A stretch of DNA of 20,195 nucleotides from a virus (lineage: Duplodnaviria; Heunggongvirae; Uroviricota; Caudoviricetes): the IMG/VR virus record IMGVR_UViG_2529293241_000014, one strand, 5' to 3'. Positions 1-20,195 of the stretch are shown here, piece after piece (within the stretch, counting starts at the first letter, position 1; every line of letters starts with the position of its first letter). The translations under genes and the position numbers were made by a program. The notes below the pieces were generated by a model, which saw only the letters and a program-made list of their open reading frames with translations, made no database searches and had not been told where the DNA came from.

Positions 1-327
1 TCATTTTTTCCAGAGGCGGTCGAACTCCGCCTTCGCAAAATAAGCGGAAGCCTGGCGAAGGATATCGTTACTGCGGCGCAGTTCACGATTTTCACGCTCC
101 AGCTCTTTCAGACGCTGACGTTCAGCGGTGGTGAGCCCTCCATCACCGCCCCCGGTATCCCGCTCATGCTGGCGACCCCAGACACGCAGAGTCTCCGGCG
201 TACAGCCAATCTTTGGGGCAATGGAACAAATTGTCGCCCATTGTGAGTCATATTCGCCCTGACTTTCCAGAACCATACGGACTGCCCGTTGACGGACTTC
301 GGGGGAAAAACGAGTATTTTTAGTCAT
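1..327 (-). CDS. IS629 OrfA (IS3-family transposase, N-terminal HTH/leucine-zipper protein)
   Basis: 108-aa [22 protein letters not shown]... with a C-terminal [18 protein letters not shown] zipper typical of IS3-family OrfA. RBS GAGGTAAACAGG precedes the ATG inside the IS end. Confidence 0.9.
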
Positions 328-381
328 CCTGTTTACCTCTTTCTCAGGAAGTTTAGTCTCCAGGATTCCCGGGGCGGTTCA
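1..381 (-). mobile_element. IS629 (IS3 family), partial; element continues beyond the window start
   Basis: Reverse complement of 357-381 reads TGAACCGCCCCGGGAATCCTGGAGA, which matches the IS629 terminal inverted repeat as I recall it. A complete orfA lies at 1-327; orfB would be off-window. Family assignment is from memory, not a search. Confidence 0.85.
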
Positions 382-452
382 CGTTGGGTTTTTCTGCTCA
401 TTATTAGCTCCTTCTGATGCCATTCTATTTCAGGAAGGAGTGTCCGTTAAAC

Positions 453-2183
453 TCAGGCTACCTCAACTCTCTTTTCAATAGGGTCAAGGTTTTTCATCCC
501 GCCAAGATCTTCTGCCACCTGTTTGAGCATTGACCTTGTTGATGGCGCATCAATTTTTGCACCTGCAGGCATCGCCTTTTCAACATTGCGATAAAGCTGG
601 TCGCTTCGTTTCATCAGCGCAGACATTCTTCCATTGACCGTATCAATAAACTTGTCGCTCATACCAAGAGCATCTTTTGCACCGGAAACGCGATCAATTA
701 TCTCACCCGCGCCCTGTGCTAGCTGCCTGATTGCTTCATTTTCCTGCACCTGTAGAGCAGAACCCGCACGGGACTTGATTGCTTGCTCAACTGCCTTGTA
801 TTGCTCGTTCCCGGAAAAGTGTGAAGGGAGTAATGAATCAACATTAAGCCTTTCAGCAGACTCCAGAACTTCAGCCTGAGGATTGATATCTAGTTCATCA
901 AGCGATGAAGCGAGATTTGGCCTTTTTTGTGCTGCTACTGTGCGAACGACTTCCTCTGGGTTCTTCGTCGCAGGCGTCATTGGTACACCTTGTGCTACTC
1001 TTGCCTCTGCGGCATGAACCGCAGGATTTGTTGCTGCAGCGGCATCACCGGAGAATGGTGATGTTTCTGTTGGCGCAGTGGTCGCTCTCTGTGCAGATGT
1101 TTTATTGCCACTAATTATATTTGATGCACCACGAACACCACGGGTAACGCCATTTATCAGGCCATGCGTAGCAATGCTAAGTCCGGCATTAATAGCGGCA
1201 TTTTCGGCAAAATCACCCCGTTGATTCGCCGCGTCAGCGAGAGAACCAATGACCATGTTTCCAGCTACACCTGCTCCAGGAACAAGATAACCGCCTATTG
1301 ACTCTCCAGCTTGCGCGTAGGGGTCTGTCGGTCTGTCTACTGGACGATAAACATCATCCAATACTTTTGGCCCCCCAAGCCCCTGACTGATTGCATTAAT
1401 CAGACTTGCGCCACCCTGCAATACGTCAAATGGTATGTTTACCAGACCACGACCAGCCTGTTCTGCAATTTGCCCTGCACTTTGACCACCAGTGAGCCAA
1501 TCGCCAGCTTGTTGCATCAATGATGGTTCTTCCCGTGTTGGTGCATTATTGGCCTGATTAACTGTTTGTTGCTGAACAGGTTTCGGTGCGACAGAACTTA
1601 CGGGTTGAGGTGGCTGCTGACTGGCTGCCTGCTGCTCAATCTGAGCAAATGGATTATTTGGGTCTGACTGCACACCTGATGCCGATACTTGTTCGGATGA
1701 CTGTACTTCCAGTTGTGCAAACGGGTTGTTAGGGTCTTGCTGAGGATGTACCTTTGCAGAGGTGGCGCGCTGTTCGACTGTTGAGTCTGTCACCGGGTCA
1801 CCAGCCCATTGAGCAAAGCGATCATCAACGTAACCGCGGCCTTCAGGTCCTGGCGTATATTCACCACGCTTTGCCTTCATAACGTTGCCGGGACCGTCGT
1901 GATAAGCCTGAAGAGAGTCACGCCAGTTACCAAACTGCTGGTACATCTTTGCCAGATAGCGCGCGCCAGCGTCAGCCTGATATTCGGGGTTTTGCATTTG
2001 CTCATCGGTATAACCCATATCACGCCATGTCCCAGGCATGACCTGAGTCAATCCTACAGCCCCGGCGGAGCTTACTGCGGCAGGGTTGTAAGAAGACTCC
2101 TTGGCACCCAGTGCAGTCATCAACCCTTCTGGCACACCGTAACGTGCGCCAGCCTGCTCTAACAAATCACGGTAATTAGCCAT
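453..2183 (-). CDS. Virion internal/ejection protein in the P22 gp16 position, with an N-terminal soluble lytic transglycosylase (SLT) domain
   Basis: 576-aa ORF, last gene of the structural operon, directly abutting the gp20-like gene. The N-terminus carries family-1 lytic transglycosylase motifs ([27 protein letters not shown]; AYHDGPGN). The central region is Q/P-rich with a tandem DPNNPFAQ repeat. Confidence 0.8.
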
Positions 2184-3515
2184 TTACTGCCCCAAAGATG
2201 GAAGATATCCGTAGCGATTAATGAAGTCGATTGACAGCTCGGGGTGCTGCTTCAGGTAATCTATAGAAGCCTGAGGCGCTTCCACTCGCTTGATACCGTT
2301 TTGCTGAACGTACTTACCAACCGCCTCATTACGCTTCTGGTTGAGCGTGTTCAGGATGACGCCAGCGTTGCGACGAAAGGACTCCTCGCTCTGCGAGTTC
2401 TGCAGCGAACCAACAGCCTGGTCGAGCTTTTTGCCCTCGGCATCAGAAAGTGCGCCCATGCCTCGCATGGCCTGAACCGCTGTCAGGTATGCTTGTGATT
2501 TAAAGGTATCAAGTCGTGCCTGAGTGTCTGCAGCCTGTGAGCCTGGAACGTTGGGGATTACTCCACGTAAGCCTGTAATGCTCTTAAGTGAAGGAGAACT
2601 AACGATATCGTTCAGAGTGAACATGCTGGTTGTGAGGGTGTTGATGCCGTCTTTGTAGCCATCATTTAGCGCTTGCTGCTTCTGCTGCAACTGCTGGTTG
2701 TTGGCTGCTATGCGGCTCTGTATTTCCTGGCGCTTCAGGTCGTTAGTTTCTGCTGATAGCATCCGGTCAAGGCGCTTATTTTCGTTGTTAATGCGGTTTG
2801 TTTCTGCGTCCAGATTAATGCGCTGCTGACCTAAATTCGCCTGGATATCTTGTCCGCGCATTGTGATTGCCTGATTCCGAGCGGCGGTTTGCGAATCCAG
2901 ATCCTGACCGCGCATGGTAACCTGGCGACCCTGCATTTTATCCTGTAGGTCAAAGTATTTTTCGGGCCCGAGACTGTTCATCCCCAGGTGATCGACAAAT
3001 TCGCCGAACTGCCGCGGGTTCTGTTGGTACATCTGAGCGACGTCATGAGGATTAACGCCAACACGAGCTAACTCACCGGCGTTGTTTTGCAGCCATGATT
3101 GCATTGCTTCTGGAGACGATGACGCAAGGCGTGCGCCAGCCGCTAAGGTGCCGATAGAATTACGCTGCTCTTCATCAATGAATCCCATGCCTTTACGAAC
3201 GGATTCAATCTGGTCTGGATATTGAGTAGCCAACTGACGCAAAGCACCGCGATCACCAGACGCATAAGCATTAGCGTACGCCTGCTGAAATTCTTTCTGC
3301 CGCTGAGCCTGCTTTTCCTGCTGAAAAACACCCGCAATACCTGAAAGACCTTGCAAAGCAGTCAGCCCAACATTGTTAGCGCCTGAACGCTCAATATCAT
3401 TGTTCTGCCTGATAAGCTGAAGCGTATTGCCGATGTCATTTACGCTCGGAGCGTTTGAGTTGACGCCGCCGATACCAGCCAACAATCCGCCGTTTGTTCC
3501 TTGCCAAGTAGCCAT
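2184..3515 (-). CDS. P22 gp20-like ejection (E) protein
   Basis: 443-aa ORF in the conserved position between the gp7-like and gp16-like genes. Q/N-rich coiled-coil-like composition typical of P22-like ejection proteins. Operon-packed, with stop adjacent to the next start. Confidence 0.8.
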   Translation of the reverse strand: MATWQGTNGGLLAGIGGVNSNAPSVNDIGNTLQLIRQNNDIERSGANNVGLTALQGLSGIAGVFQQEKQAQRQKEFQQAYANAYASGDRGALRQLATQYPDQIESVRKGMGFIDEEQRNSIGTLAAGARLASSSPEAMQSWLQNNAGELARVGVNPHDVAQMYQQNPRQFGEFVDHLGMNSLGPEKYFDLQDKMQGRQVTMRGQDLDSQTAARNQAITMRGQDIQANLGQQRINLDAETNRINNENKRLDRMLSAETNDLKRQEIQSRIAANNQQLQQKQQALNDGYKDGINTLTTSMFTLNDIVSSPSLKSITGLRGVIPNVPGSQAADTQARLDTFKSQAYLTAVQAMRGMGALSDAEGKKLDQAVGSLQNSQSEESFRRNAGVILNTLNQKRNEAVGKYVQQNGIKRVEAPQASIDYLKQHPELSIDFINRYGYLPSLGQ

Positions 3516-3524
3516 GATTCCCCC

Positions 3525-4217
3525 TTAAAACAACGAGCCAAGCAATCCGATACCAGCACCAATACCAGCGCCCCAAGGCGTTGATGTTCCCAAAAGGCTG
3601 GCAAGACCTGCACCGGCAATCGCACCAGACGTGCCACCGCTAATTGCAGTCTGAAGACTTGATGGTTTATTGGCATTAGCAGCGGCAAGAGCTGCGCTTT
3701 GCTGTGCAATGCTGCTCATGTTGTTGGCGTACGTCTGCCCGGCGTTTGCCTGACCTTGCAGCGCACCAAGCCCAACGTTTGCCAGATTGTTGTAATTGCT
3801 CATCTGATTTGATAACCAAGACTGACCGAGTGTCGGCGCGATCGTAGCCAGTTGATTGCTTGTGGCTGTCGAACCAAGTCCACCCGTCGCCTCCGCAGCA
3901 GCAAGACTCTGGTAACGCGCCTGCCCTGCAAGGTCTTTATACTGCTTAGAGTTGTAATACTGATTAAGTGCCTGCCCCTGACCTTCTAAACTGGAAAGGT
4001 TCTGAAGCTGGTTAACATACTGCTCCGCAAGAGGCGTGAACGGAGCAAGGTTTTTCATGATCGTCTGCCACTGCTGATTTTGCAGGTCTGCAGCATACTT
4101 CTGGGCTTCTGCTGCATACTTTGCGCTTTTATCAGAACTGCCACCTTTCCCGCCTTTTTCAGGGCAATAAGGTTCCTCGCCGCGCAGTTTTCTGCCCAGC
4201 TTAAATGCATATAACAT
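3525..4217 (-). CDS. P22 gp7-like ejection (E) protein
   Basis: 230-aa ORF; N-terminus MLYAFKLGRKLRGEEPYCPEKGGKGG... and a Gly/Ala-rich C-terminus resemble P22 gp7 as recalled. Conserved gene order. Confidence 0.8.
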   Translation of the reverse strand: MLYAFKLGRKLRGEEPYCPEKGGKGGSSDKSAKYAAEAQKYAADLQNQQWQTIMKNLAPFTPLAEQYVNQLQNLSSLEGQGQALNQYYNSKQYKDLAGQARYQSLAAAEATGGLGSTATSNQLATIAPTLGQSWLSNQMSNYNNLANVGLGALQGQANAGQTYANNMSSIAQQSAALAAANANKPSSLQTAISGGTSGAIAGAGLASLLGTSTPWGAGIGAGIGLLGSLF

Positions 4218-4219
4218 GG

Positions 4220-4678
4220 CTATCTCCCGTGATTCAGGAAGTCGATTAGTTCTTCGCGTGTGGCGCTGTAAAAAGTCACGTCATCCACGCCTTTGAAGTA
4301 TTTCTTGATGGTTCCTACACGCTTAAGGCCAATCATTGCGCAGTACATCTGACCGTGTCGGAATTTGCGTGCAGCGAACGATGTTACGCACTGAACGGTG
4401 GTGTTAGTCAGAATGTATCGCCAGAACGCCAGCCCAATTTCCTTGCTGAAGCCGCGAATCTCTGGCAGGTACATGGCGTGGCAATCTAATGTCAGCGGCT
4501 GAATCTCCTGATAGTAAACAATGCCGCCAAACTGACCGTGCACGTTCACCTCAAAGTAACGGCATTCAGGTTTGTAGTCGTATCCATCACCGTTGTTGCT
4601 CCCGGCGATAATGTCAGGGTGATTTCCGACTGCTTCTATCAGGTCGATGTTTCGCGTTGGTTTGAATGTAATCATCAC
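4220..4678 (-). CDS. P22 gp14-like virion assembly protein
   Basis: 152-aa ORF immediately downstream of the tail needle gene with an ATGA start/stop overlap. Position and size match the gp14 slot of P22-like phages; the sequence-level match is from memory only. Confidence 0.65.
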
Positions 4679-5523
4679 TGCTCCGCGATTATCTTGATGG
4701 TTGTGGCAGTAAACGCCGCACCATTCGACTGAATGGTTAACGTACTGCCATTTGTGGCAAGAAAGCCGTCTTTATCCACGCTGAAGAACGTAGCTAACAG
4801 GATGTTGTCGGTTGTTGTCGCCGCATTACGACTGCTGACCAGTGTGTCAGGAACAGAGCCGGAAAAGGTTAGCTGCATTGACCTGTTGGCGGTTCCGCTG
4901 GGCCACGTGCCGACAATCGACAACTTGAAGAGCAGGGTTTTGTTCTCGTTGAACACAACCATCTTGTTGTTAACGGTGTCGAAGAATGGTGCCAACGAGC
5001 CGGATGACGGTGTGAGCGTTTTCAGCAGGCTAACAAGGTTGGTCGGCGCTGTCGGGATGGTTACAGATACACCAGAGTAAACAACCTCTGACTTCTTGCG
5101 TGTGGTTGCATACTCCAGAGCATCGATGCGCGTTTCATGGTCTGAAACCTGCGACTCCAGCGACTGAACTCTTGTGTCAAGCGACGAAATATCGCTTTCA
5201 TTCTGAGCTATTCGTGTTTCATGGTCCTGAAGAGTTGATTCTGCCTGTCTGATTCGCTCCTCATGATTAACAAGCGTTGCTTCCGCAGCAGAAATTCGCT
5301 GCTCATGGTCAGCGAGAATCACATCCTGCTCATCGTTCCTGACCTGTGCATCATAAGCGCCCTGTCCGGCCTCGTTGGCTTTGTTAGCCACGTTACCAAC
5401 ATCAGTGCCCTGTGCGATAACGTAAAGCAGATACGACTGCGAGAAGATATTGCGTGGAAGGACTGATGTATCGAGCCGCGTAGCTTGGATGATTACCGGC
5501 ACATTGAGATTCGAATCAGCCAT
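4675..5523 (-). CDS. Tail needle (P22 gp26 family) with C-terminal knob domain (Sf6/HK620 type)
   Basis: 282-aa ORF. N-terminus [43 protein letters not shown] is the conserved gp26 N-terminal domain. It is followed by four DHExRI-like coiled-coil repeats and about 140 aa of non-coiled C-terminal domain, unlike the 233-aa knobless P22 needle. Confidence 0.85.
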
Positions 5524-6941
5524 TACTCAATCCTTATCTGAGCGCCAGACAGAGTGACAGGTGACTTCGTGATAACGCGCAATTTGAAGCCGACATTTTT
5601 CCTGATGCGCCCTACTCGCTTCCACAAAACACGCTTGTCGTAAACGAACGGTTCATTCTGCTCAATCATCTGCTCACGCCCGTAATTGATGCAGTCAGTG
5701 GTTGCAGAGAGAAAAAGGCGGTCGGCGTACTGCGCAACGCCAGTTGACGATTCAACCTCAAGGTCGAACACTCTGGCGTTATCCGCTTTGAAGAGTGGAG
5801 TAAACAGCAGGTGTTCCTGTTGCTTGTCGTACTGGCTGCTGATATCGAATTGCAGTTTCCCGGTAACAGATTCCAGCTTATCGCCGCACGTTATCTGATT
5901 GCCTTCGTAAACGAAGTCGATAGCGCGGTACACATCGTCATACAGACCTGTTTTCAGCACACACCATTGTGGGCCATTGGCGATTGAAGATGCGTCGTAC
6001 ACGAGGACGTGACGCGGAAGGTGGATAATCAGCAACTCATGAGCATCAAATCGCAGCGATTCCATCACACCATCAGCCAGTTCATCAGCAGTGTAGGAGC
6101 GGAGGATTTTCTCAATGCTCGCGCTGGCAATTGGTGACACCTGACCGGAGTCGATGATATACACAGACGGCGCACCCGTTGCCGGATTGCTGATAAACGC
6201 ATACGAATCAGCGAATGGCGTTTTGCAGTAAGTTCCGGCAATGCCTTTCTGCACCATCAGCGATGGTTGTGCAACATACAAAGCGGCACCAACGGTGGTT
6301 GCGCCAGTCAGGGAGAAATATTCAATAGTCGATGAACCAAAGCAGACGATGAAGTCTCGCCATGTCCCGATACCGATGATGCCGTCAGGCTGAGACTCGG
6401 CACGATATTGTGCGCTGTAACGGTCAGGATGAGATTCGTCTTCAAGGTCAGTGATAAACCATGAATCAGTTCCGTCTTTTGACCACGCATAACGCCCACG
6501 TAAGCGCGTAATGTCGCGAACTGAACCTAACTCATACTGAGTGAATCCACTGTCTGTAGGCCAGTTTGAGACGGTTTTGACCGTGCCATCATAGCGATAC
6601 TCGACCAGTTGACCATTAACGCCTACCGCCTGTGATGTCCGACCATGCGCCATTGATACACGACCACTTCCGGCAACATCACCGACTTCACTTTCTCCTT
6701 TGTACAGCTTGCCGCCACACACGCGATAAACAGCATTCTGCGCCATGTTGTACTCGACGCCGCGAGATACACCGTTCACGTCAGAACGTTTGGCAATGCC
6801 CGGGAATGAGCGAAGATATCCGCTGCTGTTCAGGATTTCTTTGGGTGTAGCCAGCATATTCACTGGCAGATAGTCGATATAGTCGGCGTTTCGGAAGTCT
6901 TTGCCGACACCTTTCATAAGCGGAAGTTGCTGAATAGGCAT
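5523..6941 (-). CDS. P22 gp10-like tail accessory (hub) protein
   Basis: 472-aa ORF, the same length as P22 gp10, in the conserved position between the gp4-like and needle genes. Confidence 0.85.
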
Positions 6942-7441
6942 TATTCGCTCCCGTTATCGCAAGGTTCCTTTCGGTGGAAGTAATTCCAACCATTCCACTT
7001 CGCCAACTGGTTACCACTACCAACAGGCATACGGTTTGGATAACCGGACTTACATTTAGCTGCTTTTGCCCTGTCCATTGCAGACAGTTTGACGAGTCGC
7101 TCTTTCCCGTATCTGGCAGTGGTTATAAGTTTTGCAGACGCTTCCAGCGCATAATCTGGAGCAATTCGGCAGGCAAGGTTGAAAATGACGGCATTGATAG
7201 CGTTATTTGATAAACCGTGCTCATCGCCCGGATCCGGAGCAACATCTGCATCAGCAAAAATGTAGCCAACGTTGATACCAGGTGACGCATCACCGCCAAG
7301 CCATTCAGCCATCATCATTTCAAGGTCGTTGACGCCGTCTTCCATAGACTGCGGTTCGACATCGGTTAACGTGGCATTTGATGCAACACCGAGCTTACGT
7401 AATGCCGCAAGAACTAAATCACCCTTCGTTGTCAGGTTCAT
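6941..7441 (-). CDS. P22 gp4-like tail adaptor/head-completion protein
   Basis: The track ORF runs to 7510, but the sequence from the internal Met ([33 protein letters not shown]...) aligns with the P22 gp4 N-terminus as recalled and gives 166 aa. The start at 7441 is therefore preferred. Confidence 0.8.
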
Positions 7442-7649
7442 CTGCTGCCGCCTTAGGTTTTCGACCAGGCTTTTTACGCTGTTTTTCTTCTGGCTCTGGC
7501 TCTGCAACATCCTTCAAAAGGTCATCAGGATGTGAAAACCAGCCAGCATCCAGATATTCCTGAAGCTCTTCGGCTTTCACGATTTCAAAGTCGTAGCCAA
7601 CGCCTTTCCACTTCTTCATGTCGCCATGACGAAAGATCATGTGTGTCAT
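7419..7649 (-). CDS. Small hypothetical virion-module protein (76 aa) between coat and gp4-like genes
   Basis: ORF from ATG at 7649 (GGAGA RBS 5 nt upstream) reading [38 protein letters not shown]..., with a charged tail [28 protein letters not shown]22 has no gene here; Sf6-type phages have a small gene 6 in this slot. Confidence 0.5.
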
Positions 7650-7693
7650 GCTTGTCTCCAGATAAAAACGGGAGCCGAAGCTCCCTCTGGTTA

Positions 7694-8989
7694 TCACGCG
7701 GTCTGGTTAGGCAGACCAACACCAATTGCCTCTGGTCGTACAGCACATGCTGAATACCACACAGCAATACGGCACTTACCAGACAGAGTGTTGATATCAC
7801 CCTGCGTTGCGAAGATGCCGTTAACACCAATACCTGGAATGCTGAAGGAAGACGTTTTCATGCCAGCAAACAGTTCATGGGTTACCGGGATCGGCTGAGA
7901 CAGCAGGCGGATTGAGTCATCAGCCCAGAACACGTTAGCGGTGGTTGTTGCCACGTTCAGAACGTTTACCGGAGTGGTATCAGCAAGAGAGGTGTTTACG
8001 TTAGCGTAAGCCTTCTCTTCTTTTGTCAGTGACGCGTCATCCAGCGCAATCGGCTTCGGCGTGATTTCGATGTGAGTACCATCGATCACACGGGTGATTG
8101 AGAAAGTCGCGTCATCAGTCAGCACATTCTTCGCCATCTGAGACAGGAACTTCACACCAATGAAGCTGATTTTGTCGCCGCGCTTAAATCCGGTGGTGGA
8201 GGATACGGTCACCGTTGCAACACGGTTGTCGACGTTCTCTTTGTTACCATCGGTATCAAGGGTGTATGCCTGCGGCTTAAACTTCTGCGCACCAGAAACA
8301 GTTACACCAGTCGCGGTTGACTTGGTAACTGCCGGAAGTTTCGGTGAGCGAAGAATTTCATCAAAGCCAGCAATCTGACGCTGAATAGTACCGTTTCGAT
8401 ATGCTTCTTCAGGAACGCGCCCGAAGATGTCACCATCTACCAGGTTGCGGCCTGCTTTGCGGTAATCGTCAGGGTTCAGGAAGTAACTGATGCCCATGTC
8501 GCGGTTTAGCTCACGGGAGAACATCAGTCGCTCTGCATCAGACACAAAATCCCAGCCAGGCAGGCCAGTCGATGGACCAATTGCGCGGGTATCGTGAACA
8601 ACAAGCGAGCCCATTTCAGTTGCCTGTTTGGCAATCGCTGACTCAATGTTATTCGCCAGTTTTTTGGCGGATGCCTGGATGCGGCGACGGTAAGAACGCT
8701 CATCACGCAGGTCATCTGCACGAAGCTCGAAGAAATCGTTATCCGGATCGCCCATGTTGCACTTCACGGAGAGTTCCAGAATCCCGGTTGCGTTGCCAGT
8801 TAAATCCCAGCCAGTCTGGGTTGGCGCTTCCTGCTCAACAGGCATCCACACGGTGTTGCTTGAACGCTGCATGGATTCTGCCGGAGGGGGGTATTTTGTC
8901 ACTTTTGACGCCATTGGCGTCAGGTTCTGGACGGTTCCGATGATTTCATCCAGAGCATACGTGACCAGTTGACCTTCATTTAATGCCAT
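7694..8989 (-). CDS. Major capsid (coat) protein, P22 gp5 family
   Basis: 431-aa [23 protein letters not shown]... ending ...[14 protein letters not shown]; collinear with P22 coat protein (430 aa) along its length as recalled. Confidence 0.95.
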
Positions 8990-9900
8990 TATCGAATTCC
9001 TTTATTCAGTTGCGCCTTGAGCTTGCGGTACGTCTCTACATCCCCTTTGTTTGCTGCCGCCTCCATCTGCTTTTCAATCGCAGAGATATTTGCAGCAACA
9101 GCATGTCCCTGAATGGGTTCATCAGGTAACGGGGCTTCTGAAACAGGCTTGGCTCGAGGCTTGAGAGTTAAACGTTCTGACAGTCGAGTGAGTTCAATCA
9201 GCGCGGATTGCCCGTCCATCGCCAGCAACTGGCGTGTTTTCTCAGGATTAGCACCAAGGTGATACATGAGAGCGGCGGATTTCTCCGGGAAGAGGCGCAT
9301 GATGTCGGCACCGACTGCTGGCGGCACCAGTTGCATGAATGCATCCTCTTTCTCCTGATAGTCAGGGATATTGAGCTTTTCCGCTGCCTCGTAGTGCTTA
9401 CGGGCCGCCTCGACGTATTGCGCTGATTGCTGGGTGAACTCCTGAGTTTTGCGACCCTGCTCGGCGACAGCCTGGCTTCGTGCGTCCATAGCCTTGATCT
9501 GCCATTCACTGTTTGCCTGCTGGAAGGCAGCCAGTGCGCGGCTCTGGTCATAGTCGTACTTAGCCAGTGCATCTTCGGAAAGATAATCGTTAGGGTCTGG
9601 TTGTTTTGGTAACTCAGGGTTCACCCGCAGGTGCTCCGGCAACTCTCCACGCTTAACCGCTTCCATCTGCTGCTCAAGCTCACGCTGGCGTTTGCGTTCG
9701 ATGCGGCGACGGGCAAATTCAGCATTAGTTGCCGGGTCTTGTTTTGGTTTCTCATCGTCTTTCCGGACAATCTCAAAGCCTTCTTCCTGACCTGCGCTGT
9801 CGTTGGCATTATCGACAACTAAGCCATCAGCAGATGCCGCTGCATGATTGCCGGGCAGGGTTAATTCTTCAGAAGCCTGAATGTCGGTGGTTTGGTCCAT
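8989..9900 (-). CDS. Scaffolding protein, P22 gp8 family
   Basis: 303-aa ORF, the same length as P22 gp8. Conserved blocks include [30 protein letters not shown] and the C-terminal coat-binding helix-turn-helix [19 protein letters not shown]. Confidence 0.92.
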
Positions 9901-9913
9901 GATTAACTCTCTC

Positions 9914-12079
9914 TTATTGAGGTGTCTCGGCTACTCCGCCGGAGGGGATTTGAACTTGACGCATAAGATTCGCGAAATCCATGCGTTGTGAATGAGTCTG
10001 GTCTGCATCTTTAAGAAGCAGCTCAGCGTTAGCACGAGCATCTTTGCTGCGCTGTTGCTGGAATTGACCTACGAGCCTGAGGTACTCACGCAGTTCTGCC
10101 TGCTTGTCGAGGTCCATATTGTTGAATATTTCTGCAATCTTCGCGGCGTTGAGTTGGTTTTGGGCTTCAACCTTGGCAGCTTCAACCTGAATCTGCGCCT
10201 GTTGGTTCTCTGCCTTGAGCAATTCAGCCTGACCTTGCAGAAGGATACCCTGCGCCTGAATTTGCTCTGCTGATGGCTGCTGCGGCTGTTGTTGTGCCTG
10301 CTGCACCATCTCCATCTCTTCAGGTGTTTCTGGTTTCTTCAGCCCCATCATCACCAGTTGCTTGTTCGCGTACTCTCGCATCATCTCGACGCCTTTACCG
10401 TCAAGCAGCGTGAAGTATTGCAGCATCAGCATCTGGAACTCTGGAGTACCTTGCGGAACCTTGGTGAGCAACTCCTGAATCTCTGCGCGGTTCTGTTCCT
10501 TCATACTCTGGAAGGATGGCCCAACGTCTGTATAGCACTCATATCGACCGCGAATGTCGTTGAGTGTGACCACATTGCCGGACTGGTAATCGACAACTTG
10601 CGCATAGAGTTGAACGTCTTTCTCGCTTCCATCTTCAAGTGTCAGCGTTACATGACGAGGAACGTCATAAATATCGTTGACCATTGAGGCATAAATCTCG
10701 CCATCACGTCGCATTGCGGTAGCCAGGTTATCCTGAAACACGTATGTCTCAAGGTCTGCCCGCATGTTCAGTTGATTGACGGTATCAAAAGCGACCTGAC
10801 CATTTGCCGCCTGCGCATCCACGCCAAGACTAGCCACTTCTTTCACTGCGTTGGTGGCAGCCTCAAGCATGTAAGCGTTGGCTTGCGGCACTTCAGGGTT
10901 TTCCATGTAGGAGATTGGACCAATCGGCAGGTCGTTACCGTTTTCATCAGTCCTGTTCTGCAGATAGTACGGATAGTCATCATTTCCGCCGTACATGTAT
11001 TCGTAGCCTTCGATTTGCTCAGGGAAGAAGGTCGGTTTCTTCTTCGGTGACCGAGCAACAATATCGGCGTTGAACGACATAATCATGTTACGAAGGCGTT
11101 GACCGTCTTTCGTCAGCCTTACCACACCCTCGTAGCACTCCTTGTCACCAGCGAATGACCATTCGCCATACACTGGAACGATTGGAATATGCTCTCCGGC
11201 TATCTTCTCGCGGTCTTTCAGTATCTGCGTACAGGTGATGATCGACTTATACACACGCCGACGCTTCACCTTGCGCTCTGCTACCTTAATGAATCCACGA
11301 TTAGCCAGGTCGTCGATGACGTCTTTGATATCCTGCTGGTAATAGCTGACCGGCTCACCTGTCAGCGGGTCGCGGTAGATGAAGACCTTCTCCTTCTCCT
11401 CTTCTACCTCGTAATACTCAGCGACGTAGACGACATCATTCGACACCCACGGGAATAGCCATGTATCGTTAGGATTCTGGAAAGATGGCAGGGTATCCGG
11501 GTCAATACCGTAATCCTCTGCGAACTCTTTCCAGCCATTGCGCGACAAGGCGTTAATCACCGTGCAGTGCTTAGCGTCGCTCTTATCCATCTGCTTGCTG
11601 TTGGCGTCCCATATGACGTGTGAGCAGGCTTCATGGATTGGCAGGCGTCGGATTACCTGATTGTTGCTTGTTGGATCGTTGTCTTCGTACTGCGTGACCA
11701 GACGCCATGCACCAACGCCTGACTCTATCTGCTCACGAACGCCAACGTTAACGGCAATCTTTGCCGTGTTATGGCGCATATCAGTACGATACATCCCCAT
11801 CAATACATCGGCTGCATCAGGATTAGCGCCGTCTTTGGGTCGGAAGAGAACGTCGACAGGGTTCCGGCGCATCTCTGCGACCAGTTTCCTGACCTCCGGG
11901 CGAACAACATCGAATTGTCCGCGATATTGCAGGGTAGTGTAGTTTGATAGCCAGTCATCCCATTGCGACACTCGGCTAAAATACAGGTCATTTGTCGCCT
12001 CGGTTCTGGCTTCATCGCTCGCCATCCAGTCTGCGTCAAACTTACACAGAATGGAATTGAGTCTGTTTTCGTCGGCCAT
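9914..12079 (-). CDS. Portal protein, P22 gp1 family
   Basis: 721-aa [21 protein letters not shown]...; long collinear similarity to the P22 portal, including the Q-rich C-terminal barrel region ending SGGVAETPQ. Confidence 0.95.
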
Positions 12080-13120
12080 TTAAGTTCTCCGTGCGATGGG
12101 CCTGATTGGGGCTGGTATCTTTTTCTCTTTTGGTTTTTTGATGTCGCGCATCATTTTTGCGAAGCGGCGCATCATGTATGCATAGCGAACGGCGGATAGC
12201 ACGTCGTCGTTAAGCTTGACGATTTTCCCGTTTTCATCACGGTGATAGAGGCGGAACTCCTCAAAGAATGGCTCACAGGTATTGAATACTTTGAAGCGAC
12301 CATCGAGCATCATGTCGCGCAATTCAGTGATGCCTGGCTCAACAGCGTTACCGCCATCAGGCCATGTCGCATGCTCCTGCAACATCATAAATCCAGCGTC
12401 TGCATACTGCCCTTTGAGCTGCTCACCGCCGCCCTTCTCGTGCTGGTTTCCATCATGAGGCCATGCGGTTGGCACTTTATGCGCCCATGATTTAACGGCT
12501 CCCCACGCCTGAACGGCTGTTTTTTCTTTCGCCTTCCACACGCGTGAAACGTAGATTGTGTCTGCCTCCTTATCCCACCAAAGCTGAACTTGCGCCTGTG
12601 GGTGATCCCATCCGAAATCCATCCCGCCAATTACGTAGAAGTGATCAGGACACTCGAACGGCTGACACTTAATCGTCTCTTCCGGTATCTGGAAGATTCG
12701 ACCACTACCCATCGTAGGAATACCGCGAGCACGCGCCTCTCTCTCATGCTCGGGATATGATGCGATGATTTGCTCTTTCTGCTCGTCGGTATAGTGCTCA
12801 GCGTCATAGATGGTCATGTTGACCACTTTCTGCGACTTGCTGGGGTTCTTCAGGAACTTGGTAACAACGTCAGACATCCCCATCAGCGGGGTAAACGTCA
12901 GAATTGAGAATTGCCCGTATTTGTTGGTACGGGTAAGACCTTCGCCATAAATGCTGTATGGTGGCTCTTCGTCAAACCACACGCCGTGGATTGTGTCACC
13001 CTGCCAGCGAGCACGGCCTTGCGAGTATGGCTTGAAGTAGCAGATTGAAATGCCATCTTCAACGCCATCAGCCGTGTGATGCTTAACCAGAAGGTGATCA
13101 ACAAGGTTCGGAAAGAAAGG
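12080..13120 (-). pseudogene. Large terminase subunit, 5'-truncated by IS911 (3' about 346 codons retained)
   Basis: The minus-strand frame is open from the IS911 end at 13120 through the stop at 12080. The retained part begins ...PFFPNLVDHLLVKHH..., includes a Walker-B-like VWFDEEP and the C-terminal nuclease region (GGMDFGWDHP...). No Walker A or start codon is present; the frame runs straight into the IS911 IRL. Confidence 0.85.
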
Positions 13121-13192
13121 TGAAGTGGCACACTGAATTTGGCCACCTGAACAGAGGTGATATGCTCACCTCAGAACAACACAGGTGCTCCA

Positions 13193-14361
<1,169 letters not shown>

Positions 14362-14369
14362 CCACTTCA

Positions 14370-14765
14370 AATACACTGAGCGATTACGCTGTATTGGTCC
14401 CTGAGAGACTTGAGGCAATCTTGGACCGAGCCGCTCAACGCGCAGGTCATGAGGATATTAGTGAGCTATTGGGCTGCACTGTATGCAGCTATGCGGGCGA
14501 TGATACAGGTATCTATCTCCTGCCTAAGCGGTTCGCTTCTATCTCTTTCAGGTCAACTAAAGACGCTAAGACGGTAGATGTCAAAGTGACCCGAAATAGT
14601 AACACTGCTGGGTATGACCTTGAGTTAATCAGTGTGGTCGATGTGTTGGCTACTGGTTCCGTTAAGGTGAAAGCAGGTGAGTTTGACGTTGAGAAAGACG
14701 CCTCTTTCCCGTTGATACATGTTATTCGGTTTACTACCCCCAGAGTAACTATAAACCCTGAGTGA
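14370..14765 (+). pseudogene. Orphan 3' fragment (about 132 codons) of an unknown gene, fused to the IS911 copy 1 IRR
   Basis: The frame is open from inside the IS through to the TGA at 14763-14765 and contains no ATG. Protein-like composition (...LGCTVCSYAGDDTGIYLLPKRF...KVTRNSNTAGYDLELISVVDVLATGSVKVKAGEFDVEKD...). I do not recognise the family. Confidence 0.35.
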
Positions 14766-14782
14766 ACATAAGGAGTACATCC

Positions 14783-14854
14783 ATGAGCTTACAGGAGTTG
14801 TTTGAGCTCGTCCTCTGTGTCCACTTGGTCTGCCAGATGCTCTACAGGGAGTGA
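14783..14854 (+). CDS. Candidate 23-aa small ORF (MSLQELFELVLCVHLVCQMLYRE)
   Basis: ATG at 14783 lies 7 nt after a consensus AAGGAG (14770-14775), immediately downstream of the fragment's stop. The product is short and hydrophobic. Support is RBS geometry only. Confidence 0.2.
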   Translation: MSLQELFELVLCVHLVCQMLYRE

Positions 14855-15287
14855 TAGATAATAACAATCAGCAGTATGCCCGCAATAGCTATTGCTCTGG
14901 TGCTTACAGGTCTTCACTTTGCGGTCGGTGGGGGCTAGTGGCGGTAGGTTATGACCTTGTATTAAAAAAATCTCACAAAAATCTCTGTAGGTATCTAATA
15001 GACAAAGGTCGGTGCCTCTCCCCCCTTGGCCCCTTTCAAGTCTGGACGATTGGGGCCACTGTCTTAAAGTTAGGACTTCGGTTACTCGTTCCAGAGTCAC
15101 GAGAGGACTTGACCAGAGATAAATTAATGTGTAACCATAACTGTAACCACAAGGATTCATCATCCTTTAGGAAGCAAATGGTTAGCGGCTGATTATCTTC
15201 GATACCTCGATTCCCGCTGCCCGCTCCAGTTAGAGTCTTTCAGTCTGCGATGATGGGAAATCCCGGAGTGACTGAAAGACGTTTAAG

Positions 15288-15359
15288 TTATGAATGATCG
15301 CTTTTTTTGCAAAATTGCTGTGCAGAAATACTAACCTTCGGGCAGGCGATCATTCATAA
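15288..15359 (+). promoter_or_regulatory. Perfect 14-bp inverted repeat (TTATGAATGATCGC ... GCGATCATTCATAA) with 44-nt spacer, upstream of the lysis cassette
   Basis: Arms at 15288-15301 and 15346-15359 are exact reverse complements. The spacer contains TTGCAA-N16-TACTAA, a weak sigma70-like pair. The position fits the late-promoter/leader region of a lambdoid late operon. Confidence 0.4.
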
Positions 15360-15433
15360 GCACTCTGCTTTTATTCCGATTAACTGTGGGTGGTTTGTTG
15401 GATAGAGTGCTTCCCTTACTGTATATATCGTTT

Positions 15434-15459
15434 CGCCCGCTTTTGCGGGTTTTTCTTTT
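15434..15459 (+). terminator. Rho-independent terminator-like hairpin (candidate tR'-like site), 60 nt upstream of the holin
   Basis: CGCCCGC-TTTT-GCGGGT followed by TTTTCTTTT: GC-rich stem, 4-nt loop and a U-run on the plus strand. Confidence 0.55.
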
Positions 15460-15519
15460 CAAATCCCTTTCATTTCTCAGTGTAAAACTACGCCATCCGT
15501 TATTTGCGGAGGTGAGGCT

Positions 15520-15735
15520 ATGAAATCCATGGACAAAATTTCAACGGGCATTGCCTACGGCACCTCCTCAGGCAGTGCTGGCTACTGGTTTTTACAGTGG
15601 CTTGATCAGGTCAGTCCGTCACAGTGGGCTGCGATTGGTGTACTGGGGAGTCTGGTTCTGGGCTTCCTGACTTATCTGACAAATCTGTACTTCAAAATCA
15701 GAGAAGACAAGCGTAAGGCTGCACGGGGAGAGTAA
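15520..15735 (+). CDS. S: Pinholin, phage 21 S21 type (class II holin with dual-start MKSM motif)
   Basis: 71 aa, [71 protein letters not shown]; near-identical to S21 as recalled. GGAGG RBS at 15507-15511. Met1/Met4 dual start is consistent with holin/antiholin products. Confidence 0.95.
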
Positions 15736-15739
15736 TTCA

Positions 15740-16054
15740 ATGACACAAAAATATGAACTGATTGTGAAAGGGATCCGCAATTTTGAGAATAAAGTTACGG
15801 TAACTTTAGCGTTACGGGACAAAAAACGCTTTGACGGTGAAATTTTTGACCTGGACATCTCGCTGGACCGTGTTGAAGGTGCCGCGCTGGAGTTTTATGA
15901 GGCAGCAGCCAGAAGGAGCATCAGACAGGTCTTCCTGGATGTTGCTGCCGGGTTATGTGAAGGGGACGAGCTGTTGCCAGAAACGCGCCCCTGTTCAGAG
16001 GCGCGGTATACCATAAAAATTAACAGTTCTGATAACTCGATTACGGGTTGTTAG
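15740..16054 (+). CDS. Conserved hypothetical protein of lambdoid lysis cassettes (YdfR-like; DUF1327 by recollection)
   Basis: 104-aa ORF starting 5 nt after the holin stop and ending 55 nt before the endolysin start. The same holin-ORF-endolysin arrangement is recalled from the E. coli K-12 Qin prophage (essQ-ydfR-rrrQ). Hydrophilic, no TM segment. Confidence 0.75.
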   Translation: MTQKYELIVKGIRNFENKVTVTLALRDKKRFDGEIFDLDISLDRVEGAALEFYEAAARRSIRQVFLDVAAGLCEGDELLPETRPCSEARYTIKINSSDNSITGC

Positions 16055-16109
16055 CTTTTTGCAGTTAGCTTTCCAGTATCTTTCATTGGTAGCATCCTGA
16101 TAAATATCC

Positions 16110-16643
16110 ATGAGCGCAAAAATCAAATACGGCCTGTCAGCTGCTGTTCTGGCGCTGATTGCTGCAGGCGCGTCTGCTCCTCAAATACTTGACCAGTTTC
16201 TGGATGAAAAAGAGGGTAACCACACTACGGCATACCGCGATGGTTCCGGTATATGGACCATCTGTCGTGGTGCCACAATGGTGGATGGTAAGCCCGTCAT
16301 ACCGGGAATGAAGCTGTCGAAGGAAAAATGCGACCAGGTTAACGCTATTGAACGTGATAAGGCGCTGGCATGGGTGGAGCGCAATATTAAAGTACCACTG
16401 ACCGAACCACAGAAAGCGGGTATAGCGTCATTTTGTCCCTATAACATTGGCCCAGGTAAGTGTTTCCCGTCGACGTTTTATAAGCGGCTGAATGCCGGTG
16501 ATCGTAAGGGCGCATGCGAGGCGATTCGCTGGTGGATAAAAGATGGTGGGCGCGATTGCCGCATACGTTCAAATAACTGCTATGGACAGGTTATTCGTCG
16601 TGACCAGGAAAGCGCATTAGCCTGTTGGGGGATAGATCAGTGA
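16110..16643 (+). CDS. R: SAR (signal-anchor-release) endolysin, T4-lysozyme-like muramidase
   Basis: 177 aa with a weakly hydrophobic Ala/Gly-rich N-terminal segment (YGLSAAVLALIAAGASAP) and the catalytic E-8aa-D-5aa-T triad (EGNHTTAYRDGSGIWT). Pairs naturally with a pinholin. Confidence 0.9.
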   Translation: MSAKIKYGLSAAVLALIAAGASAPQILDQFLDEKEGNHTTAYRDGSGIWTICRGATMVDGKPVIPGMKLSKEKCDQVNAIERDKALAWVERNIKVPLTEPQKAGIASFCPYNIGPGKCFPSTFYKRLNAGDRKGACEAIRWWIKDGGRDCRIRSNNCYGQVIRRDQESALACWGIDQ

Positions 16644-16648
16644 GCTGA

Positions 16649-17107
16649 GTCGCCGCGATTATTTATGCTCTGGTTATCTGCATCATCGTCTGCCTGTCGT
16701 GGGCGGTCAATCATTACCGTGATAACGCCATCGCCTACAAAGAACAGCGTGATAAAAAAGTCAGTGAGCTGAAGCTGGCGACCGCCACCATTACTGACAT
16801 GCAGCAACGCCAGCGTGCTGCTGATGTACTCGATGCTAAATACACGAAGGAGTTGGCTGATGCGAAAGCTGAAAATGATGCTCTTCGGCGCAAGCTTGAT
16901 AATGGTGGCCGGGTGCTCGTCAAAGGAAAATGCTCTGTGCCATCCTCAGCCGAAACCTCCAGCGCCTCCGGCATGGGCAATGATGCCACCGTCGAACTCT
17001 CTCCAGTTGCTGGACGAAACGTTCTCGGTATCCGGGACGGAATCATCAGAGACCAGACAGCACTGAGAACGCTTCAGGAATATATCAGGACGCAATGCCT
17101 TCGATGA
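16649..17107 (+). CDS. Rz: Rz-like i-spanin (lambda Rz family); canonical start disrupted, start uncertain
   Basis: Frame encodes (V)[35 protein letters not shown]...[20 protein letters not shown]...TQCLR, collinear with lambda Rz. The lambda-type start overlapping the endolysin stop reads GTG AGC TGA (16640-16648), an in-frame stop at codon 3. The next in-frame ATG is at 16799, downstream of the TM segment. Confidence 0.6.
16860..17066 (+). CDS. Rz1: Rz1-like o-spanin (outer-membrane lipoprotein) embedded in the +1 frame of Rz
   Basis: [46 protein letters not shown]...: signal peptide, VAGC lipobox and proline-rich mature part, fully nested inside Rz as in lambda. Confidence 0.75.
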
Positions 17108-17281
17108 TAGAGATAATTTTACTCATCATCCTTCACATCTGGCTCTGTAGACAGGGTGGTGATCACTTCTGGAGTGAATCCAGATTAAACATCTCATTGC
17201 TGATGCTTAAAGTTGAGCATTTGGCGCGCGGTAAGGGGCTGCGTTTAGATAAGAGCCAGTCATCACAAACACCAGGATTTA

Positions 17282-17304
17282 GCCTCGCATTCGCGGGGCT
17301 TTTT
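17282..17304 (+). terminator. Rho-independent terminator downstream of Rz/Rz1
   Basis: GCCTCGC-ATTC-GCGGGGC followed by TTTTT: 7-bp GC-rich stem with one G-U pair, 4-nt loop and U-tract, 175 nt after the Rz stop. Confidence 0.7.
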
Positions 17305-17331
17305 ATTGCAACAAAGGTAAAGATGAAGTGG

Positions 17332-18500
<1,169 letters not shown>

Positions 18501-18577
18501 TGGAGCACCTGTGTTGTTCTGAGGTGAGCATATCACCTCTGTTCAGGTGGCCAAATTCAGTGTGCCACTTCAAGACG

Positions 18578-18921: not shown

Positions 18922-19827
18922 CTATATTTCCAGACATCTGTTATCACTTAACCCATTACAAGCCCGCTGCCGCAGATATTCCCGTGGCGAGCGATAACCC
19001 AGCGCACTATGCGGATGCCATTCGTTATAATGCTCGAACGCCTCTGCAAGGTTCTTTGCTGCCGTTAACCCGTCTGGTTTGGGCATGATACTGATGTAGT
19101 CACGCTTTATCGTTTTCACGAAGCTCTCTGCTATTCCGTTACTCTCCGGACTCCGCACCGCCGTGTTCTTCGGTTCAAGTCCCAACATCCGGGCGAACTG
19201 GCGTGTTTCATTAGCCCGGTAGCATGAACCATTATCCGTCAGCCACTCCACTGGAGACGACGGAAGATCGTTGCCGAAGCGGCGTTCCACCGCTCCCAGC
19301 ATGACGTCCTGTACTGTTTCACTGTTGAAGCCGCCGGTAGTCCCCGCCCAGTGCAGTGCCTCACGATCACAGCAGTCCAGCGCGAACGTGACACGCAGTC
19401 TCTCTCCGTTATCACAGCAGAACTCGAACCCGTCAGAGCACCATCGCTGATTGCTTTCTTTCACGGCCACTCTGCCTGTATGTGCCCGTTTCGATGGCGG
19501 TACAGCAGGTTTTCGCTCAAGCAACAGCGCATTCTGGCGCATGAGCCGGTAAACACGTTTGGCATTGATCGCAGGCATACCATCAAGTTCTGCCTGTCTG
19601 CGAAGCAGCGCCCATACCCGACGATAACCATACGTGGGCAGCTCTCCGATAACATGGTGTATACGGAGAAGCACATCCGTATCATCAGTGTGACGACTGC
19701 GGCGGCCATCCATCCAGTCATCGGTTCGTCTGAGAATGACGTGCAACTGCGCACGCGACACCCGGAGACAACGGCTGACTAAGCTTACTCCCCATCCCCG
19801 GGCAATAAGGGCGCGTGCGCTATCCAC
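18922..19827 (-). CDS. insD: IS2 InsD (OrfB, DDE transposase domain)
   Basis: 301-aa [41 protein letters not shown]... matching IS2 InsD as recalled; overlaps the 3' end of insC as in IS2. Confidence 0.95.
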
Positions 19828-20150
19828 TTTTTTGCCCGTCCATATTCAACGGCTTCTTTGAGGAGTTCATTTTTCATCGTTTTCTTGCCGAGCAGGCGCT
19901 GGAGTTCTTTAATCTGCTTCATGGCGGCAGCAAGTTCAGAGGCAGGAACAACCTGTTCTCCGGCGGCCACAGCAGTAAGACTTCCTTCCTGGTATTGCTT
20001 ACGCCAGAGAAATAACTGGCTGGCTGCTACACCATGTTGCCGGGCAACGAGGGAGACCGTCATCCCCGGTTCAAAGCTCTGCTGAACAATTGCGATCTTT
20101 TCCTGTGTGGTACGCCGTCTGCGTTTCTCCGGCCCTAAGACATCAATAAT
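19785..20150 (-). CDS. insC: IS2 InsC (OrfA) with the initiator codon position reading ATT instead of ATG
   Basis: Protein [55 protein letters not shown]... is IS2 InsC. The codon at 20148-20150 (plus strand AAT) gives ATT where canonical IS2 has ATG, by my recollection. An E-to-K difference (KTMKNELL) is also present. Confidence 0.8.
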
Positions 20151-20195
20151 CTGTTCTCCAATGACAAGTCTAAAAACTAGTATTAAGACTATCAC

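Follow-up and report, generated by a model that had tools for sequence, protein, structure and literature searches.

Introduction

The closest described relative of the gene treated here is ydfR (b1555) of the Qin prophage of Escherichia coli K-12, which stands between a holin gene and an endolysin gene in the order essQ-ydfR-rrrQ-rzpQ. The present work concerns the occupant of the same slot in the virus record IMGVR_UViG_2529293241_000014, a stretch of 20,195 nucleotides (nt) that is called the window throughout. It is a 104-codon open reading frame (ORF) running from ATG to TAG at positions 15740–16054 of the plus strand, between the gene of a pinholin-type holin (S) and that of an endolysin of the signal-anchor-release (SAR) type (R). 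A first-pass annotation of this DNA had pointed out the hydrophilic 104-residue product in this position and had compared it with the Qin arrangement; both the ORF and the K-12 gene order are found as described. The ORF is a genuine gene under selection and belongs to the YdfR/DUF1327 family, which has been catalogued before; as the family and its gene position are already annotated, the window adds no new entity. From a comparison of this locus with its relatives, a tentative reading is put forward in which YdfR would be an optional, holin-coupled late protein whose conserved core may act on RNase E or RNA decay.

A full-text literature search returned one study with data on YdfR (PMC13232886; RNA Biol 2026). 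In that study, codons 1–72 of K-12 ydfR came out of a two-hybrid screen three times, a FLAG-tagged fragment of RNase E (Rne 1-598) co-eluted with Strep-YdfR, and the Strep-YdfR eluate was rich in DNase-resistant nucleic acid (PMC13232886). Binding of RNase E and RNA is reported for the K-12 protein alone and not for the window protein, which is 82% identical to K-12 YdfR over residues 1–72, the reported RNase E-binding fragment. A literature search for DUF1327 yielded a genome comparison as the sole paper, and no experiment on whether loss of ydfR alters lysis time was found in the literature searched.

Several better-described phage proteins offer points of comparison. T4 RIII is a cytoplasmic cofactor of lysis inhibition. 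Phage P1 encodes, together with its lysis genes, the antiholin LydB, which has no predicted transmembrane (TM) domains (PMC9025707). YdfR resembles these two by description, in that all three are small proteins without a TM segment that are encoded with lysis genes and are, or would be, made late; unlike proteins of the LydB and RIII type, YdfR is dispensable for cassettes with an identical holin, and its relatives also occur away from holins. T4 Srd, phiKZ Dip (gp37) and T7 gp0.7 are phage modulators of RNase E, a group that YdfR would join if the K-12 result holds. T4 Srd binds the N-terminal half of RNase E. The lambdoid morons, such as lambda bor and lom, are like ydfR in their presence or absence between the same flanking genes, in the alternative cargo found at their sites and in a terminator-like hairpin at the 3' end. 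Unlike morons, ydfR has no detected promoter of its own, lies in the sense orientation, is translationally linked to the holin and differs only slightly from its neighbours in G+C content.

Identity of the gene and selection acting on it

Membership of the DUF1327/YdfR family, which the first-pass annotation had proposed for verification by profile search, is supported by a Pfam DUF1327 (PF07041) match of 133.7 bits, versus a gathering cut-off of 25, with E = 2.6e-39 over profile positions 1–90 of 93. The ORF product also matches PHROG 2735 (E = 3.6e-55). The same annotation had held that the gene has no established role, and the databases agree to the extent that the PHROG label reads 'unknown function' and that NCBIfam has no model covering the YdfR/DUF1327 family; that view must now be qualified by the RNase E and RNA lead of the 2026 study. 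In RefSeq, near-identical genes are labelled 'YdfR family protein' and stand in the same holin-YdfR-lysozyme order. Two public viral contigs (L013 and L014) encode a product that is 100% identical across all 104 residues, and gp55 of phage mEp460 and the copy in the prophage of E. coli HS13-1 are 98–99% identical to the window protein. Homologues stand at the same slot in functional phages, among them mEp460, BP-4795 and Stx1 phages.

The window copy and K-12 YdfR share the slot as well as the 4 nt between holin stop and start codon, and the two proteins diverge after about residue 72, the C-terminal 30 residues of the K-12 protein being unrelated to the window tail. Moreover, K-12 ydfR runs through the endolysin leader and overlaps the start of rrrQ (ATGA), whereas the window has a 55-nt spacer and a hairpin at the stop codon. 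The mEp460 and HS13-1 genes have the same 104-residue tail type and identical flanks, including the 55-nt spacer, and as mEp460 is deposited as a complete phage genome, the window subtype appears to belong to working phages. The highest Kyte-Doolittle mean over 19 residues is 0.75, so that no TM segment is present in the 104-residue protein (pI 5.0); a cytoplasmic location, as first proposed, is accordingly the one predicted from the sequence.

Selection was assessed from the ratio of non-synonymous to synonymous divergence (dN/dS) and its counterpart within the subtype (pN/pS). For core codons 1–72, dN/dS is 0.24 versus K-12, 0.23 versus BP-4795 and 0.31 versus PhiR12_5, with synonymous sites near saturation in the comparisons with BP-4795 and PhiR12_5. 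These ratios, together with the DUF1327 and PHROG 2735 matches, exclude a chance ORF, and the absence of purifying selection, which would have spoken against the first-pass proposal, is not what is observed. For the same pairs, the flanking genes give 0.08–0.15 for S and 0.04–0.09 for R, and pN/pS among sequences of the window subtype rises from 0.07 for R through 0.16 for S to 0.23 for the ORF. The ORF is under protein-level purifying selection, yet it evolves several times faster than its S and R neighbours. Its tail is moderately constrained, with a pN/pS of 0.26 and a dN/dS of 0.37 versus the homologous PhiR12_5 tail. Between the cores of BP-4795 (locus L004, 4001–4216) and PhiR12_5 (locus L103, 760–975), dN/dS reaches 1.14, unlike the 0.23–0.31 of the deep comparisons, on small counts (13.5 non-synonymous versus 3.5 synonymous changes). 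Possible causes are an episode of relaxed or diversifying selection, or recombination. A foreign origin by composition was considered and rejected, the G+C content of the ORF (0.46–0.49) being barely below that of its neighbours (0.50–0.51).

A conserved core and an exchangeable tail

The protein can be divided into a YdfR/DUF1327 core (codons 1–72; 15740–15955, plus strand), which is supported by the PF07041 match, a structure model, conservation and dN/dS, and a variable C-terminal tail (codons 73–104, ending in GLCEGDELLPETRPCSEARYTIKINSSDNSITGC, with the stop codon; 15956–16054, plus strand), which is one of several alternative tail modules of the family. Structure prediction of the protein alone, which had been suggested at first pass, was carried out with AlphaFold2 (AF2). 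From a 25-sequence alignment, the core is modelled with a mean predicted local distance difference test score (pLDDT) of 87.4 (five models, 83–87) as three antiparallel strands, β1 (residues 5–14), β2 (18–27) and β3 (33–43), followed by a long helix (50–73); when the whole protein is modelled, confidence in the tail is low. In a set of 25 members, the most distant at 25% identity, every sequence has Y53 and E54, while Y5, L7, G47 and A57 are each kept in 90% or more. All six residues are present in the window protein, as is the family motif G-x2-[LV]-x-[FY]-Y-E-x2-A.

Searches with this fold were uninformative as to function. Only generic β3-α matches were retrieved with the core, with Z of at most 6.4; structural scores were 4.2–4.8 for double-stranded RNA-binding domains, 4.6–4.8 for phiKZ Dip and 4.4 for T7 gp1.2, none of which reached 8, so that structural similarity to the RNase E modulator Dip is not seen at that level. 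A structure search of BFVD returned nothing at E ≤ 0.001, and the family profile had no match among PDB sequences. As modelled, the core appears to be a generic β3-α unit, and no function is drawn from its fold.

The C-terminal part behaves differently from the core. At least five different C-terminal ends occur in the family, and members are 103, 104 or 114–116 residues long, with further forms of 169–190, 206 and 268–287 residues that have coiled-coil-like extensions. In a DNA alignment, conservation extends through '...VAAGLCEGD'; alternative cassettes come next, and beyond them conservation resumes with the endolysin leader. Variants that are truncated or fused are common. A Pfam scan of the long variants gave DUF1327 only, with sub-threshold coiled-coil-like noise. 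The Stx2a phage locus L104 has in its holin-endolysin slot a 213-residue ORF (811–1452) that has no core, matches PHROG 1085 at positions 117–296 and is homologous solely to the C-terminal extension of the long YdfR variants, which indicates that this extension is an independent module. At the other extreme, distant relatives of 72–77 residues consist of the core alone. Judged from these alignments, the tail is an exchangeable and often truncated module, and the conserved unit is residues 1–72. As a separate observation, the 176-residue protein P0180 (locus L109, 4001–4531) contains two tandem DUF1327 cores and is encoded 5' of a PF16080 holin gene and a lysozyme gene; the tandem arrangement hints that the core works as a dimer.

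Position, optionality and distribution of the family

The position of the gene relative to the holin is nearly fixed. In the fetched loci, 87 of 93 E. coli-type family ORFs start exactly 4 nt past the stop codon of an S21-type holin gene; two more show another computed gap only since a longer upstream start was picked, and two have no detected holin ORF, one lying at a contig edge and the other being extended through the holin region. The window conforms to this junction, with the S stop TAA at 15733–15735 and the ATG at 15740, so that the 5-nt spacing given at first pass is in fact 4 nt, and the 55-nt gap to the endolysin start was given correctly. The distance to the endolysin gene varies among the fetched loci (−4, 50–55, 319–370 or 452 nt). 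The window layout, with 4 nt after S and 55 nt before R, is found in 46 of 59 104-residue ORFs and is the commonest.

Upstream of the start codon, a strong Shine-Dalgarno (SD) sequence, GGGGAGAG, can be read within the 3' end of S (15725–15732, plus strand). It appears to serve whichever gene comes after S, namely ydfR here and R in cassettes that do not have ydfR. For instance, Phi24B has the same GGGGAGAG followed by TAA and then by the R start 4 nt later, and R likewise starts 4 nt after the S stop by way of this SD in Phi24B/933W-type cassettes and many Stx2a phages. The DUF1327 gene would in this manner take over the holin-linked ribosome-binding site.

At the same time, the gene is optional. 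Within the phage collection, 438 records encode an S21-type holin and 101 encode DUF1327, or about a quarter. The holin of PhiR12_5, which has ydfR, is 100% identical to that of Phi24B, from which ydfR is absent, and the endolysin N-termini of the two are nearly the same; a specific pairing of YdfR with a cognate holin is therefore not observed. Presence and absence of ydfR, alternative inserts and a conserved leader identify the S-R slot as an insertion site for accessory cargo.

Relatives are also found outside this slot as core-only proteins of 72–94 residues. They lie between tail genes L and K (loci L094 and L095), between tail genes M and L (L100), immediately before a J-like tail tip gene (L111), and 5' of holins of other families with an antisense gene in between (L098 and L109). 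A Salmonella member stands between a PF16080 holin gene and a lysozyme gene. In every DUF1327 context found, the gene is in the sense orientation inside a late module. Across contexts, what seems to stay constant is late expression and what varies is the neighbour gene. An optional gene with relatives in tail-gene clusters argues against an obligate role in lysis, and adjacency to the holin should not be taken as lysis function.

A small convergent ORF (58–182 residues) was observed tail-to-tail after the DUF1327 gene, at −52 to +41 nt, in about 9–10 of 13 distinct contexts. On the minus strand, such ORFs lie at L103 1217–1477, L104 1464–1778, L107 3809–4048, L109 4560–4811, L098 768–1070, L094 4273–4821, L100 754–966 and L111 4269–4445; they are absent from window-type, BP-4795-type and K-12-type cassettes. 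That these ORFs form one family was considered and found no support, as there was no blastp match across contexts, hhalign probabilities were 2% and 12%, and only weak PHROG hits were shared. The family of the Salmonella convergent partner comprises five clusters only.

An exhaustive profile search of 1.84 billion representative proteins returned 75 clusters at E ≤ 0.001. A search of one genome per species matched Escherichia and Shigella only, together with two metagenome bins that are probably contaminated, and the protein database adds Salmonella as a host. Within E. coli the family is very common: out of 5426 complete genomes, 4352 (about 80%) contain DNA of the family, at up to 10 places each, and these copies lie largely in prophage remnants like that of the window.

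A tentative role in RNA decay and competing explanations

In the reading put forward here, ydfR would be an optional accessory gene that lambdoid phages of Escherichia, Shigella and Salmonella carry in their late operon. An intact phage would transcribe it with the lysis genes and translate it from the SD embedded in the end of the holin gene, and the anatomy of the cassette suggests that YdfR would be made late and in an amount coupled to that of the holin. YdfR would not be part of the lysis machinery. Its 72-residue core would most likely bind RNA and/or RNase E, the latter at its catalytic N-terminal half, and, by extrapolation from the K-12 orthologue, would tune the decay or processing of late-infection transcripts, with the C-terminal tail as an exchangeable appendage. 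As a whole, this reading is held tentatively, with a probability that we place somewhat below one half.

Several points weigh against it. The link to RNase E rests on a single study, in which full-length K-12 YdfR gave a two-hybrid signal with Rne 1-597 only and not with 1-498 or 1-415, overexpression of YdfR altered few transcripts, and co-purification was reported without a nuclease control, so that bridging by RNA is possible (PMC13232886). The core is not basic, with about 12 basic and about 12 acidic residues as counted from the sequence in a protein of pI 5.0, and among its basic residues only K10 and R/K44 are conserved in the 25 members; direct RNA binding is consequently not evident from the sequence. 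The fold searches, as noted, returned generic matches only (Z ≤ 6.4), and the near-invariant 4-nt holin junction of the E. coli members is compatible with a holin-related role.

That last point leads to the explanation that YdfR is a soluble modulator of lysis timing, an antiholin or cofactor that would target either the pinholin's cytoplasmic tail or the SAR endolysin prior to release. It draws on the E. coli-type junction, where ydfR directly follows the holin gene with 4 nt and a shared SD, on an S-ydfR-R block that has stayed collinear despite near-saturated synonymous divergence (dS of about 1.1–2.0 for S, ydfR and R), and on the precedent of P1 LydB, a soluble antiholin encoded beside its holin (PMC9025707). 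The Keio deletion of K-12 ydfR was, in addition, scored as envelope-defective in a genome-wide screen (PMC3879167 supplements); however, this phenotype may be polar, with the terminator-less kan cassette reading into rrrQ, whose start overlaps the ydfR stop. About three quarters of the phage records with an S21-type holin do without ydfR, no co-adaptation is visible, identical holins and near-identical endolysin N-termini being found whether ydfR is present or not, and relatives reside in tail modules or beside other holin families (PF16080); a lysis-timing role is for these reasons judged unlikely. A related possibility is that the main selected effect is exerted in cis, the insert shifting R from a strong SD to a leader without one and thereby lowering or re-timing endolysin synthesis, with the protein as such of little importance. 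R indeed uses the GGGGAGAG SD in ydfR-less cassettes and has the SD-less ATCCTGATAAATATCC leader in all cassettes with an insert, the slot accepts unrelated inserts (L104), and tails are often replaced or truncated. An effect of the insert as such would not account for a core under protein-level purifying selection (dN/dS 0.23–0.31), for a family signature that is kept down to 25–30% identity, or for homologues that are retained where no endolysin follows, and we regard it as improbable.

YdfR might instead serve the lysogen, as a factor in fitness, stress or exclusion that the prophage supplies; its retention in so many cryptic prophages would then be explained. Its abundance in E. coli genomes speaks for this, but may just mirror how common lambdoid lysis cassettes are. 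In a screen, the minimum inhibitory concentration of streptomycin rose 3-fold when K-12 ydfR was overexpressed (PMC12924614), cold is reported to induce Qin genes (PMC13232886), and the convergent small ORF that follows many relatives has the orientation typical of lysogen-expressed genes. However, no sigma-70-like promoter is found on the plus strand upstream of the gene, ydfR is nearly silent in growing K-12, with almost no reads (PMC13232886), and the gene is in the sense orientation in late operons in every context. Likewise, no defence model of PADLOC-DB was matched at E ≤ 0.1 by the window protein, three long variants, a distant core-only member or the core-less ORF of L104. A lysogen function is in our estimate quite unlikely. 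A passenger ORF, selfish or in decay and now without function, would be consistent with selection that is weaker than on its neighbours, with the dN/dS of 1.14 between BP-4795 and PhiR12_5, and with the frequent truncated and fused variants, but deep pairs are well below a dN/dS of 1, the frame is intact across lineages with saturated synonymous sites, and the conserved motif spans very distant members, all of which renders this explanation highly improbable.

The preferred reading, that of a late factor acting on RNase E or RNA decay, also has a broader form. The YdfR/DUF1327 core could represent an unrecognised class of temperate-phage factors that, late in infection, dock on RNase E (at its catalytic half) or on the RNA substrates of this enzyme, from whichever slot of the late operon they occupy and often with a convergent small gene; this extension is considered doubtful.

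The lysis cassette around the gene

The holin encoded upstream (15520–15735, plus strand; 71 residues) is an S21-type class II holin of the pinholin type, matching Pfam PF04971 (Phage_holin_2_1, 'Bacteriophage P21 holin S'; E = 4.8e-35) and PHROG holin families. Its N-terminus, MKSMDK, has the MKSM dual-start motif in the arrangement of the S21 pinholin. About 70 nt 5' of the holin gene lies a hairpin resembling an intrinsic terminator, GCCCGC-UUUU-GCGGGU followed by a U-run (15435–15460, plus strand), whose presumed function would be termination. The same sequence occurs identically in E. coli HS13-1, where it comes after a tRNA cluster downstream of the antiterminator gene Q, and expression of the cassette in an intact phage would, by inference, depend on Q-antiterminated late transcription. 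A consensus scan of 14300–17400 found no sigma-70-like promoter on the plus strand, and Rfam gave no match in the same interval.

Downstream of the core, an 11-bp hairpin covers the last eight codons of the ORF and its stop and is followed by CUUUUUG (16029–16061, plus strand); it is weakly terminator-like (z = −2.4 for a 103-nt region) and of putative function. The endolysin gene is preceded by the leader ATCCTGATAAATATCC (16094–16109, plus strand), which runs up to the ATG without an SD and is conserved across cassettes. It is invariant in the window, BP-4795, R12_5, L104 (where the DUF1327 core is absent) and a Salmonella cassette whose holin is of a different family, and is present whenever holin and endolysin are separated by an insert, across deeply diverged cassettes; in K-12, a diverged version of it is translated as the final ydfR codons. 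The leader is AU-rich and could, speculatively, be regulatory or an RNase E site.

The endolysin itself (16110–16643, plus strand; 177 residues) is an R21-like lysozyme with an N-terminal SAR-type segment, matched by Pfam PF00959 (Phage_lysozyme; E = 1.1e-24). Its N-terminus, GLSAAVLALIAAGASA, is hydrophobic and rich in Gly and Ala and is followed by the spacing E-x8-D-x5-T. The protein matches PDB entries 3hde/3hdf/4zpu (RrrD), and the alignment with 3hde, the phage 21 SAR endolysin, begins at residue 12. These features fit a SAR endolysin, for which release from the membrane is predicted.

The spanin genes complete the cassette. The Rz i-spanin gene (16640–17107, plus strand) has a stop at codon 3, TGA at 16646–16648, where the alignment shows AGA in HS13-1, and Pfam Phage_lysis matches the residual Rz ORF at 16799–17107. 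The Rz1 o-spanin frame embedded in Rz (16860–17066; lipobox VAGC) is intact. An intact Rz/Rz1 pair is accordingly not present in the window, and this cassette is probably defective for disruption of the outer membrane.

Genomic surroundings of the window copy

The mEp460 and HS13-1 copies lie downstream of Q, in HS13-1 also of the tRNA cluster, and have an intact Rz, whereas the window copy is followed by the Rz with TGA at codon 3 and is bracketed by insertion sequences (IS). Homology to the intact HS13-1 prophage begins at 15207, within the 3' end of a tRNA gene (GGTTCGATTCCCGCTGCCCGCTCCA, 15200–15232), and ends near 17309. In HS13-1 the holin gene is preceded by a cluster of four tRNAs and by Q, both of which are missing here; ARAGORN found no tRNA gene in the window, only the last ~25 nt of one remaining at about 15207, and neither Q nor a late promoter is present in the window.

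The flanks carry two IS3-family elements of 1249 nt each that are 100% identical and inverted relative to each other. The left copy (13121–14369, plus strand) cuts the large terminase gene of a minus-strand P22-like prophage; the right copy lies at 17324–18572 on the minus strand. Together they bracket a 2954-nt segment carrying the lysis remnant, which looks like the outcome of a recent IS-mediated inversion or a composite-transposon-like structure. The P22-like structural module (portal, scaffold, capsid and ejection proteins) occupies 1–13120 on the minus strand, opposite to the lysis cassette, and because of the IS insertion the large terminase ORF (12080–12982) is without the first ~100 positions of the Pfam N-terminal domain model. 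The opposite orientation of this module and the cut terminase imply that the lysis cassette does not belong to that prophage in the present arrangement.

Between the left IS and the tRNA remnant, a stretch of ~840 nt of different origin (14370–15206) was noted, with a 136-codon TTG-start ORF (14355–14765) that has no Pfam match; this stretch is rare, being matched in 36 of 5426 E. coli genomes and in two at near full length with 90% identity. A third IS, of the IS3 family and IS2-like, was observed at 18922–20195 on the minus strand, with a 301-residue integrase-core ORF and a 136-residue helix-turn-helix ORF. The presence of three IS elements in 7 kb suggests a Shigella-like, IS-rich genome, and no genome of the E. 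coli collection covers 80% of the window. For intact phages, in which ydfR shares the late operon and has its SD inside S, the co-expression at lysis proposed at first pass is a reasonable inference. The copy described here, which lies in a decayed remnant bracketed by IS, probably lacks normal expression.

Significance

YdfR is among the commonest uncharacterised prophage genes of E. coli and is located centrally in a lysis cassette that ranks with the best studied, so that knowing its job would close a gap in the E. coli 'y-ome'. Such knowledge would also decide if YdfR is a means by which lambdoid and Stx phages tune the decay of host RNA or the timing of lysis. If the broader form of the RNase E reading were true, then, with family DNA in about 80% of complete E. 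coli genomes, the DUF1327 core would constitute a widespread and unstudied layer of phage control over host RNA decay.

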